Source: Candidatus Kaiserbacteria bacterium
GTDB lineage: Bacteria; Patescibacteriota; Minisyncoccia; Phycocordibacterales; Phycocordibacteraceae
Length of the DNA: 64,000 nt
Reading direction: 5' to 3'
Assembly: GCA_023264445.1 (NCBI GenBank)
Contig: JAHFMN010000003.1
Location: 18,421-82,420, forward strand
In this document: piece by piece, positions 59,640-61,102 of the stretch
Numbering within the stretch: the first letter of the stretch is position 1
Layout of the letters: every line of letters starts with the position of its first letter
Notes under the pieces: generated by a model
What the model saw: only the letters and a program-made list of their open reading frames with translations
The model's database searches: none
What the model was told of the DNA's origin: nothing
Position numbers and translations under genes: made by a program

Positions 59640-61102
59640 TGGATATGTTCCACGAACAGCTTCCGCTACCCGTGCCTTGTTACGACTTAGTCCTTGTCAT
59701 TGAATTTGCCGTAGTACTGCGCAAGGCAGTCCTTCGGGCACCCCCAACTCCCTTGACTTGACGGGCGGTGAGTACAAGACTCGAGAACGTATTCACCCCG
59801 GTTTGGCTGACCCGGGATTACTAGCGATTCCGGCTTCATGAGGTCGATTGCAGACCTCAATCCGTACTGGGGGCGGTTTTATAAGGATTGGCTCCGCCTT
59901 ACGGCATTGCTACCCGTTGTACCGCCCATTGTATTATGCGTGCAGCCCAAGGTATCAGAGGGACATGCTGATCTGGCGTCATCCCCACCTTCCTCTCCCG
60001 TGAGGGAGCAGTCTCGCCTGGCCATATAGGCAACAGACAACGGGGGTTGCGTTCGTTACCCCACTGAAGGGAACAGTTCAAACCACGAACTGACGACGAC
60101 CATGCATCACCTGTCCAGCACCCTCGAAGGCTCCGTCCCTTTCAGGTCGGATGCAGCTGGATTTCTAACCTTGGTAAGGTTCTTCGTTTGTCGACGAATT
60201 AAGCCGCATAATCCACCGCTTGTGCGAGTCCCCGTCTATTCCTTTGAGTTTTAATCTTGCGATCGTACTACCCAGGCGGCTCGCTTACCGCGTTAGCTTA
60301 GTCTCACAGAGGGTCGATACTCCGTAAAACGAGCGAGCAACGTTGAGGGCCAGGACTACCGGGGTATCTAATCCCGTTCGCTACCCTGGCTTTCGTGTTT
60401 GAGCGTCAGGAACGTACCAGTGCATTGCCTTCGCCTTTGGTGTTCCCCATGATATCAACGGATTTCACCCCTCCACCATGAGTTCCATGCACCTCTTACG
60501 CCCTCGAGCCATACCGTTTCCCTCGCCGGCCGTAGGTTAAGCCCACGGATTTTACGAGAGACTAATATGGCCGCCTAGACACCCTTTACGCCCAGTGATT
60601 CCGGGTAATGCTTGGGGCCTCTGTATTACCGCTCCTGCTGGCACAGAGTTAGGAGCCCCTTATTCATCGGGTACCGTCAATAAACTTCGTCCCCGATAAA
60701 AGATGTTTACGTACCAAGGCACTTCATCCATCACGCGGCGTCGCTCCGTCAGACTTTCGTCCATTGCGGAATATTCTCGTCTGCAGCCTCCCGTAGGAGT
60801 ATGGACCGTGTCGCAGTTCCATCGGTGGGGGTCAGCCTCTCAGCTCCCCTAAGCGTCGTAGCCTTGGTAGGCCGTTACCCTACCAACTAGCTGATACTAC
60901 GCAGGCCGCTCCCGAAGCGAAAAACCTTTACCCTTGCGGGACTATCGGGAATTACCCGGTCTTTCGACCGGCTATGCCCGACTTCGGGGGACGTACCTAC
61001 GTGTTACTACCTCGTCTGCCGGTTGCCCTTGCGGGCCCCCTTGACTTGCATGACTTATCCACGCCGCCAGCATTCACCCTGAGCTAGGATCAAACTCTCA
61101 TT
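59640..61102 (-). rRNA. rrs: 16S ribosomal RNA (complete, about 1463 nt)
   Basis: 5' end AGAGTTTGATCCTAGCTCAG; 515 region GTGCCAGCAGGAGCGGTAATAC; 3' AAGTCGTAACAAGGCACGGGTAGCGGAAGCTGTTCGTGGAACATATCC. Helix 45 GGAA loop present. Ends are within about 5 nt. Confidence 0.9.

Follow-up and report, generated by a model that had tools for sequence, protein, structure and literature searches.

A 16S rRNA gene of the Parcubacteria with a compensated, clade-wide change in the 530-loop pseudoknot

A 64,000-nucleotide (64-kb) stretch of bacterial DNA (contig JAHFMN010000003.1, positions 18,421 to 82,420; hereafter the window, to which all coordinates refer) carries a small-subunit (SSU, 16S) rRNA gene that departs from the canonical sequence in the pseudoknot of helix 18 (h18), where Escherichia coli positions 505–507 pair with positions 524–526. 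The initial annotation of the window had read UCC for GGC on the 5′ strand of this element and GGA for GCC on its 3′ strand, and had taken the gene for a functional but deep-branching 16S that standard amplicon surveys would miss. The locus thus raises the question of whether the gene is sound and the pseudoknot truly compensated, and of whether the altered state belongs to this organism or to a larger group. Here we show that UCC/GGA is the norm across a clade, being found in at least 115 species-representative genomes, and is not peculiar to this organism. The region is, with high confidence, the complete, single, intact and apparently functional 16S rRNA gene of a bacterium of the Parcubacteria/Paceibacteria (Patescibacteria, the candidate phyla radiation (CPR)), in which the rewritten pseudoknot is an old, clade-wide character. 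The gene and the two pseudoknot strands are placed as follows:

59638–61105, minus strand: 16S (SSU) rRNA gene, 1468 nt, without insertion or intron (comparisons with the Rfam model RF00177, E. coli and locus L075)
60652–60654, minus strand: E. coli 505–507, UCC for GGC, 5′ strand of the h18 (530-loop) pseudoknot (Rfam and MAFFT alignments)
60633–60635, minus strand: E. coli 524–526, GGA for GCC, 3′ strand of the h18 pseudoknot (Rfam and MAFFT alignments)

The 16S rRNA gene and its pseudoknot

The Rfam model of bacterial SSU rRNA (RF00177) matches window positions 59638–61105 on the minus strand with 1352.3 bits (gathering score, 50), and the match spans model positions 1–1533 without truncation; the coordinates first given, 59640–61102, were essentially right. 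The gene is 67% identical to E. coli rrsH (MAFFT alignment) and measures 1468 nt, as compared with 1542 nt for an E. coli-type molecule. It is shortened at about E. coli positions 79–96, 198–211, 453–473 and 1129–1139 and at the tip of helix 44 (Rfam and E. coli alignments). A shortened 16S with missing helix tips is typical of Parcubacteria, and the deletions agree in overall character with the 16Gap regions of Tsurumaki 2022. Rfam reported no second SSU gene in the window. An organellar (mitochondrial or plastid) SSU is not indicated: the best model of the clan is the bacterial one, the neighbouring genes are bacterial and the GC content is about 54% (even across the window, at 0.49–0.57).

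The register of the pseudoknot was fixed by two independent alignments, one to the covariance model RF00177 with Infernal and one to E. coli rrsH with MAFFT, and both agree with the UCC and GGA assignments of the initial annotation. Pair 505–526 has changed from G-C to U-A and pair 506–525 from G-C to C-G, and pair 507–524 is kept as C-G. The change is therefore the clean compensation that had been proposed, with two pairs altered on both sides and one left as it was, and three Watson–Crick pairs (U505–A526, C506–G525 and C507–G524) are present. The remainder of the 530 loop, from U516 to A523 and from G527 to A535 (including G529, G530, U531, A532 and A533), is that of E. coli. We infer that the pseudoknot folds as it does in E. 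coli. The rewriting of GGC/GCC to UCC/GGA would keep the Watson–Crick pairing by which the pseudoknot locks the 530 loop of helix 18, and the preserved pairing would keep the fold in which G530 and A532 are exposed to the A site.

Woese and Gutell reportedly proposed the pairing of 505–507 with 524–526 in 1989 on the basis of covariation, and Powers and Noller are said to have found in 1991 that it is essential and that a mild weakening of the pseudoknot leads to streptomycin resistance. Two later papers cite both works in that sense (PMC5354577 and PMC10521367). In the account of Noller et al. (2022; PMC9014874), where this earlier work is also cited, the pseudoknot is a stacked, all-G-C helix that positions G530 and A532. 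The window gene has the same three pairs and follows the same principle: what counts is that the bases pair, not which bases they are. It differs from the classical case in that UCC/GGA joins one transversion flip, of G-C to C-G, to the replacement of another G-C pair by U-A, and in that this state is fixed in a large, free-standing clade of bacteria. No paper that states the UCC/GGA compensation outright was found in literature searches, one of them for the string CAGCAGGAGCGGTAA itself; the compensation is implicitly encoded in redesigned primers (515F_Mod, described below), and it is an immediate corollary of known facts.

The rest of the molecule shows the same pattern of conserved functional nucleotides and paired substitution. 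In the E. coli-numbered alignment, 60 of the 71 functional or conserved positions that were checked are identical to E. coli. Among them are all the listed nucleotides of the decoding centre and the P site (C518, G530, A532, G693, A790, G926, C1054, C1400–G1405, A1408, A1492, A1493, G1494, A1518 and A1519). Eight of the eleven differing positions make up four compensated pairs; a further one is G21A, which turns the helix 1 wobble U13·G21 into U13–A21. The pair C1409–G1491 has become A-U (window positions 59758 and 59689). Other compensated elements are as follows:

60237, minus strand: E. coli 921, U to A, with its partner 1396 (window 59771) changed from A to U, at the base of helix 28 (Rfam and E. 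coli alignments)
60059–60072, minus strand: hairpin UCCCUUCAGUGGGG, consensus cgGGUUAAGUCCcg, in which three G-C pairs have become C-G (GGG/CCC to CCC/GGG), all pairs being standard in the Rfam alignment
59651–59674, minus strand: helix 45 (E. coli 1506–1529), a 10-bp stem with a GGAA tetraloop and with A1518 and A1519 kept (Rfam alignment)

In the helix that encloses the 60059–60072 hairpin, one C-G pair has become U-A, and compensating changes have left every one of the ten helix 45 pairs standard. Set against a canonical bacterial 16S (E. coli rrsH, RF00177), the window gene thus has the same architecture, decoding-centre nucleotides, pseudoknot of three Watson–Crick pairs, helix 45 GGAA loop and processing stem. 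By contrast, it is only 67% identical in sequence, its pseudoknot is no longer all G-C, tips of helices are deleted, and it lacks both the CCUCC anti-Shine–Dalgarno (anti-SD) core and an adjacent 23S gene.

Distribution of the UCC/GGA state

The distribution of the altered state was assessed by a scan of one genome per GTDB species with the pattern GTGYCAGCMGGAGCGGTAA, which fixes 524–526 as GGA and leaves 505–507 free. The scan gave at least 119 loci, of which at least 115 are 16S genes and 4 are chance matches in coding DNA. Nearly all of the at least 115 GGA-bearing genes belong to metagenome-assembled genomes (MAGs) of Patescibacteria/CPR, going by the submitters' labels (Patescibacteria, Paceibacterota, Parcubacteria, and Kaiser-, Nomura-, Adler-, Zambryski-, Wolfe-, Yanofsky- and Kuenenbacteria), and every one of them has UCC at 505–507. 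In the filtered set, among the matches listed and with the window included, the exact complement UCC is present in 114 of 114 GGA rRNAs; as the pattern had left 505–507 free, this is compensation beyond chance.

The nearest relatives place the gene in the Parcubacteria/Paceibacteria, by comparison of identities rather than by a tree. The closest 16S among the matches listed is that of a Candidatus (Ca.) Parcubacteria MAG (L075, JBJOOS01), at 97.4% over the full length (BLAST), followed by L060 (Patescibacteria group, JAGWVF01 REEB413) at 95.6%, L061 (Ca. Kaiserbacteria, DAIDIW01) at 94.2% and L107 (Ca. Kaiserbacteria) at 90.9%. With a best match of 97.4% among those listed, the organism can be no more than another species within this group. 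The Parcubacteria/Paceibacteria (OD1) MAGs (L075, L060 and L061; 91–97% 16S identity) have an identical h18, including UCC/GGA, and share the shortened helices, helix 45, a 3′ tail GGAACAUAUCCAA without anti-SD, the 16S–tRNA-Ile–murD layout, the flanking genes and the leader–trailer stem (see below). The window 16S itself is identical to none among the matches listed. The distribution in the scan and the identities of the relatives together indicate that UCC/GGA is an old and fixed character of a large, well-known clade; on this account the rewriting would be no event in the history of this particular organism. An origin in the Planctomycetes or the wider Planctomycetes–Verrucomicrobia–Chlamydiae (PVC) group, suspected from GGCTGC at the EUB338 site and from the unlinked 16S gene, was dropped when the genome scan and BLAST pointed to Parcubacteria.

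Variants at 525–526 other than GGA were sought in metagenomes with the pattern GTGCCAGCAGKBGCGGTAA. GAC/GUC was found in 41 sequences, and many further AT-rich SSU rRNAs of mitochondrial type have GUC with an extra bulge base, which puts them outside the fixed-offset count. Other compensated states recovered were AAC/GUU, CAC/GUG (L174) and GCC/GGC (L176); L174 and L176, both CPR-like metagenome contigs, are most similar (78%) to 16S genes of the Parcubacteria clade. GCC/GGC could plausibly have stood between GGC/GCC and UCC/GGA as an intermediate reached by a single flip, and the series GGC/GCC, GCC/GGC, UCC/GGA may be usable as a rare-change character for deep CPR branches. Among 90 distinct h18 sequences, 97% of the pseudoknot cells are paired, as compared with 37–47% in controls in which the partner was slid. 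Pair 505–526 is GC in 41 of these sequences, UA in 40, AU in 2 and CG in 2, and pair 506–525 is AU in 43, CG in 41, GU in 3 and GC in 1. These counts show compensation rather than frequencies, as the sample was selected on the 3′ strand. Seven metagenome contigs (L121, L124, L125, L159, L173, L215 and L232) carry UAC/GUC with a U505·C526 mismatch, apparently uncompensated and in one lineage, and three singletons are further exceptions to the pairing.

Primer sites, the 3′ tail and translation start signals

Three widely used primer sites fall on altered positions:

60626–60644, minus strand: 515F site (E. coli 515–533), GTGCCAGCAGgaGCGGTAA, with 2 mismatches to 515F and 515F-Y and 0 to 515F_Mod
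61079–61098, minus strand: 27F site, AGAGTTTGATCCTaGCTCAG, with 1 mismatch (G21A)
59667–59688, minus strand: 1492R site, AAGTCGTAACAAGGcAcggGTA, with 4 mismatches

In-silico primer evaluation, which had been suggested as a check, bore out the alterations noted earlier in the 27F, 515F and 1492R sites, with one, two and four mismatches, respectively. The 27F mismatch lies at primer position 14 (CCTaGCTCAG), those of 515F and 515F-Y at primer positions 11 and 12 (E. coli 525–526), and all four of 1492R (site AAGGCACGGGTA) in the half of the primer nearer its 5′ end. Mismatches were also found for EUB338 (1), 534R (2), 926R (1), 1392R (1) and 1100R (2), and none for 341F, 805R, 806R, 806RB and the published 515F_Mod; the combination of a mismatch to 515F with a match to 515F_Mod is the one expected of a Parcubacteria 16S. 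Primers written for the canonical GCC (515F and 534R) would mismatch at two adjacent internal positions as a consequence of the rewritten pseudoknot. The single mismatches of 926R and 1392R arise from the compensated flip of U921–A1396 to A-U, and those of 1100R and 1492R would likewise be by-products of compensated flips, in the GGG/CCC hairpin and helix 45. The claim that such organisms escape standard surveys holds in part: V4 primers based on 515F would largely miss this gene, but 341F, 805R, 806R and 515F_Mod match it.

This shortcoming of the primers is well known from the literature. According to Hu et al. (2024; PMC10943839), the V4 pair 515F/806R covers 6.3% (SILVA) or 0% (MiDAS) of Parcubacteria and 341F/805R 56–72%. 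Their primer 515F_Mod (GTGYCAGMAGBNKCGGTVA) is degenerate at exactly the positions changed in the window 16S, and raised the share of Patescibacteria amplicon sequence variants from 5.9 to 23.8%. The same 515F blind spot was described by Schulz et al. (2017; PMC5644168). For microbial ecology it is of consequence that V4 surveys based on 515F under-count Parcubacteria; the shortfall has been on record ever since the description of the CPR, and the redesigned primers address it.

The 3′ end of the gene departs from the canonical form in the following features:

59638–59650, minus strand: 3′ tail GAACAUAUCCAAA, without the anti-SD core CCUCC (sequence and Rfam alignment)
59633–59643, minus strand: hairpin UCCA-AAU-UGGA, which runs from the last bases of the 16S into the start of the spacer and covaries among relatives

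The CCUCC core, a typical though not strictly defining feature of bacterial 16S, is absent from the tail of the window gene. It is likewise missing from 69 of 72 related tails, 2 of these 69 keeping a near-canonical AUCUCCUUUCU, and so from most of the Parcubacteria relatives compared; L028, L073 and L120 keep GAUCACCUCCUUUCU. Tsurumaki et al. (2022; PMC9297842) describe a loss of the anti-SD in a subgroup of the Parcubacteria, and according to the same paper about half of Parcubacteria have lost it.

The hairpin at the tail is shared with relatives. In 66 of 72 of them, as compared with 5% of cross-pairings, the triplet that is homologous to UCC in CCUCC is followed within about 10 nt by its reverse complement, and the hairpin covaries even where the anti-SD is absent (UCC..GGA, UCA..UGA, UAA..UUA and UUU..AAA); relatives with canonical tails have CUCCUU-UCU-AAGGAG in the same place. 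The hairpin may be a precursor-processing element kept after the anti-SD was lost. The covariation was measured as reverse-complement occurrence with the cross-pairing control in place of RNAalifold, which predicted no structure for 26 ungapped 3′ tails (loop lengths differ and the MAFFT alignment had no gaps); a naive best-hairpin search picked non-homologous stems and was not used.

Start signals were counted window-wide for 53 open reading frames (ORFs) of at least 120 aa, with starts taken crudely from the longest ORF. SD-like motifs (AGGA, GGAG or GAGG at −18 to −4) are not enriched (7 of 53 ORFs, against a background of 11%), which is consistent with the absence of the anti-SD. An altered SD pairing to the new tail was tried and rejected, mRNA motifs complementary to AUAUCC preceding 5 of 53 genes, against a background of 10%. 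Hexamers resembling a −10 element (TATACT, TAGAAT, CATAAT and others) lie 4–18 nt before the start codon of 10 of 53 genes, against 1.2% expected, which hints that some mRNAs may be leaderless.

Flanks, alternative readings and neighbouring genes

Whether the gene is sound and rightly assembled can also be judged from its flanks:

61104–61123, no strand assigned: 5′ leader arm of the rRNA processing stem, a 20-nt inverted repeat that is 100% complementary to 59470–59489
59470–59489, no strand assigned: 3′ trailer arm of the processing stem, pairing with 61104–61123
59295–59372, minus strand: tRNA-Ile (GAU), located downstream of the 16S and immediately before murD, a layout shared with L060
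61274–61302, minus strand: promoter-like TTGACG-17-TAGTAT upstream of the leader, a weak match to consensus only

The inverted repeat is shaped like a classical leader–trailer processing helix, and the same stem, with compensating differences, is found in L075, L060, L107 and L010. The promoter-like match carries no weight, the count of such matches being no higher than the shuffled expectation. No 23S, 5S or tRNA-Ala gene accompanies the 16S (57983–61105), and no 23S or 5S gene lies elsewhere in the 64 kb; L060 is arranged alike, and the rRNA genes appear to be unlinked. Window positions 54136–59293 are collinear with L060, and 62580–63943 with L061, L010, L036 and L093.

Several other readings of the locus were weighed. 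UCC and GGA would not be true pseudoknot partners if the region were misaligned, and helix 17, just upstream, is about 21 nt shorter than in E. coli and could shift an alignment made by eye. Infernal (with a posterior probability of '*' throughout) and MAFFT nevertheless concur, the invariant strings UAAC, GUGCCAGCAG and GCGGUAAUAC stand in place beside the pseudoknot, and both stems of h18 are in place and 99–100% paired. The structure-model alignment thus reveals no shift in 505–526, and we consider the chance of one to be extremely small. A chimera, joined from conserved rRNA pieces of different organisms, was a danger that the initial annotation itself had named, the 16S gene being a classic site of assembly chimeras and the window being probably derived from a metagenome. 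It is very improbable: L075 matches all 1468 nt end to end, at 97.4%, without a breakpoint, both flanks are syntenic with independent MAGs, and 20 nt of the leader form a perfect complement to the trailer at a distance of 1.6 kb. Long-range pairs (505–507/524–526, 921/1396 and 1409/1491) are moreover compensated within one sequence, and the GC content is even across the window.

Decay would offer another account of the altered sites, with the conserved-site changes as damage in a non-functional copy. The loss of the anti-SD, the unlinked 23S, the shortened helices and the many substitutions at conserved sites could be read in this way, but the substitutions in helices are paired (few non-standard pairs are flagged in the Rfam alignment), the decoding-centre nucleotides are intact, dozens of species have kept these features, the processing stem is conserved and the window has no other SSU gene; we hold decay to be highly unlikely. 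An unrecognised deep-branching lineage with a unique rewiring of the 530 loop, as first proposed, would fit the 67% identity to E. coli and the changes at many near-universal positions. This, too, has very little probability, as public MAGs labelled Parcubacteria, Patescibacteria and Kaiserbacteria match at 97.4, 95.6 and 94.2%, UCC/GGA recurs in at least 115 species-representative genomes, and the primer blind spot of the group is already published; a spread of 77–97% in identity excludes the notion that the 16S genes of these MAGs are contaminants from one unknown organism. The term 'deep-branching' overstates the case: the gene is neither alone nor newly deep-branching, with relatives at 94–97.4%.

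The reading that we prefer is accordingly that of an intact Parcubacteria 16S gene. Some points weigh against it. The expression of the gene and the three-dimensional fold of its product are presumed, and the lack of a canonical anti-SD together with the lack of a linked 23S would be odd for a working rRNA operon in most bacteria. The taxonomic labels of the matching MAGs are those of their submitters, and some are plainly wrong (Bacillota, Flavobacteriaceae and Omnitrophota); the scan, being selected on 524–526 as GGA, gives no fraction of Parcubacteria or CPR that carry the state. Both the absence of the anti-SD and the unlinking of the 23S are, however, common to the relatives, and the former has already been published. 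The claim that the gene is functional looks right: it is apparently so, given its paired substitutions, intact decoding-centre bases and conserved processing stem, and we infer that its rRNA assembles into working ribosomes. It is a normal Parcubacteria 16S, the peculiarities of which are clade-wide and, as regards primers and the anti-SD, already in the literature.

The pseudoknot is unlikely to be more than the product of neutral drift. A non-neutral effect of the pseudoknot bearing U505–A526, through an altered decoding switch between h18 and S12, perhaps with intrinsic insensitivity to streptomycin or altered fidelity, is a tentative idea to which we give a small but real chance. It is suggested by the coincidence of UCC/GGA with the near-absence of RsmG in CPR and, in a subgroup, with the loss of the anti-SD. 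RsmG, the methylase of the neighbouring G527, occurs in less than 10% of CPR genomes (PMC12641178), and loss of RsmG or mutations in the 530 loop lower streptomycin sensitivity in model bacteria, as a mild weakening of the pseudoknot reportedly does. The state is a clean case from nature which confirms that the 530-loop pseudoknot requires base pairing but no specific bases, and it supplies a defined four-nucleotide variant for tests in E. coli; nothing new on ribosome function follows from it unless the variant alters decoding or antibiotic binding.

Ten flanking ORFs were annotated. The neighbours, ordinary housekeeping genes, include murD, a VanY-like peptidase, murC, an RsmI-type methylase, a VirD4-like ATPase, an amino-acid-kinase family protein (a pyrH-like kinase) and secF. 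A few genes downstream of the rRNA gene, on the minus strand, lie the VirD4-like gene (53424–55190), for an ATPase resembling the type IV coupling proteins VirD4/TraG, and a gene (52032–53417) for a protein that looks secreted and contains lamin-tail and PKD domains. Between the 16S trailer and tRNA-Ile, positions 59408–59448 form an 18-bp near-perfect hairpin (ACTCAAACAAAAACACCC and GGGCGTTTTTGTTTGAGT) with a 5-nt loop.

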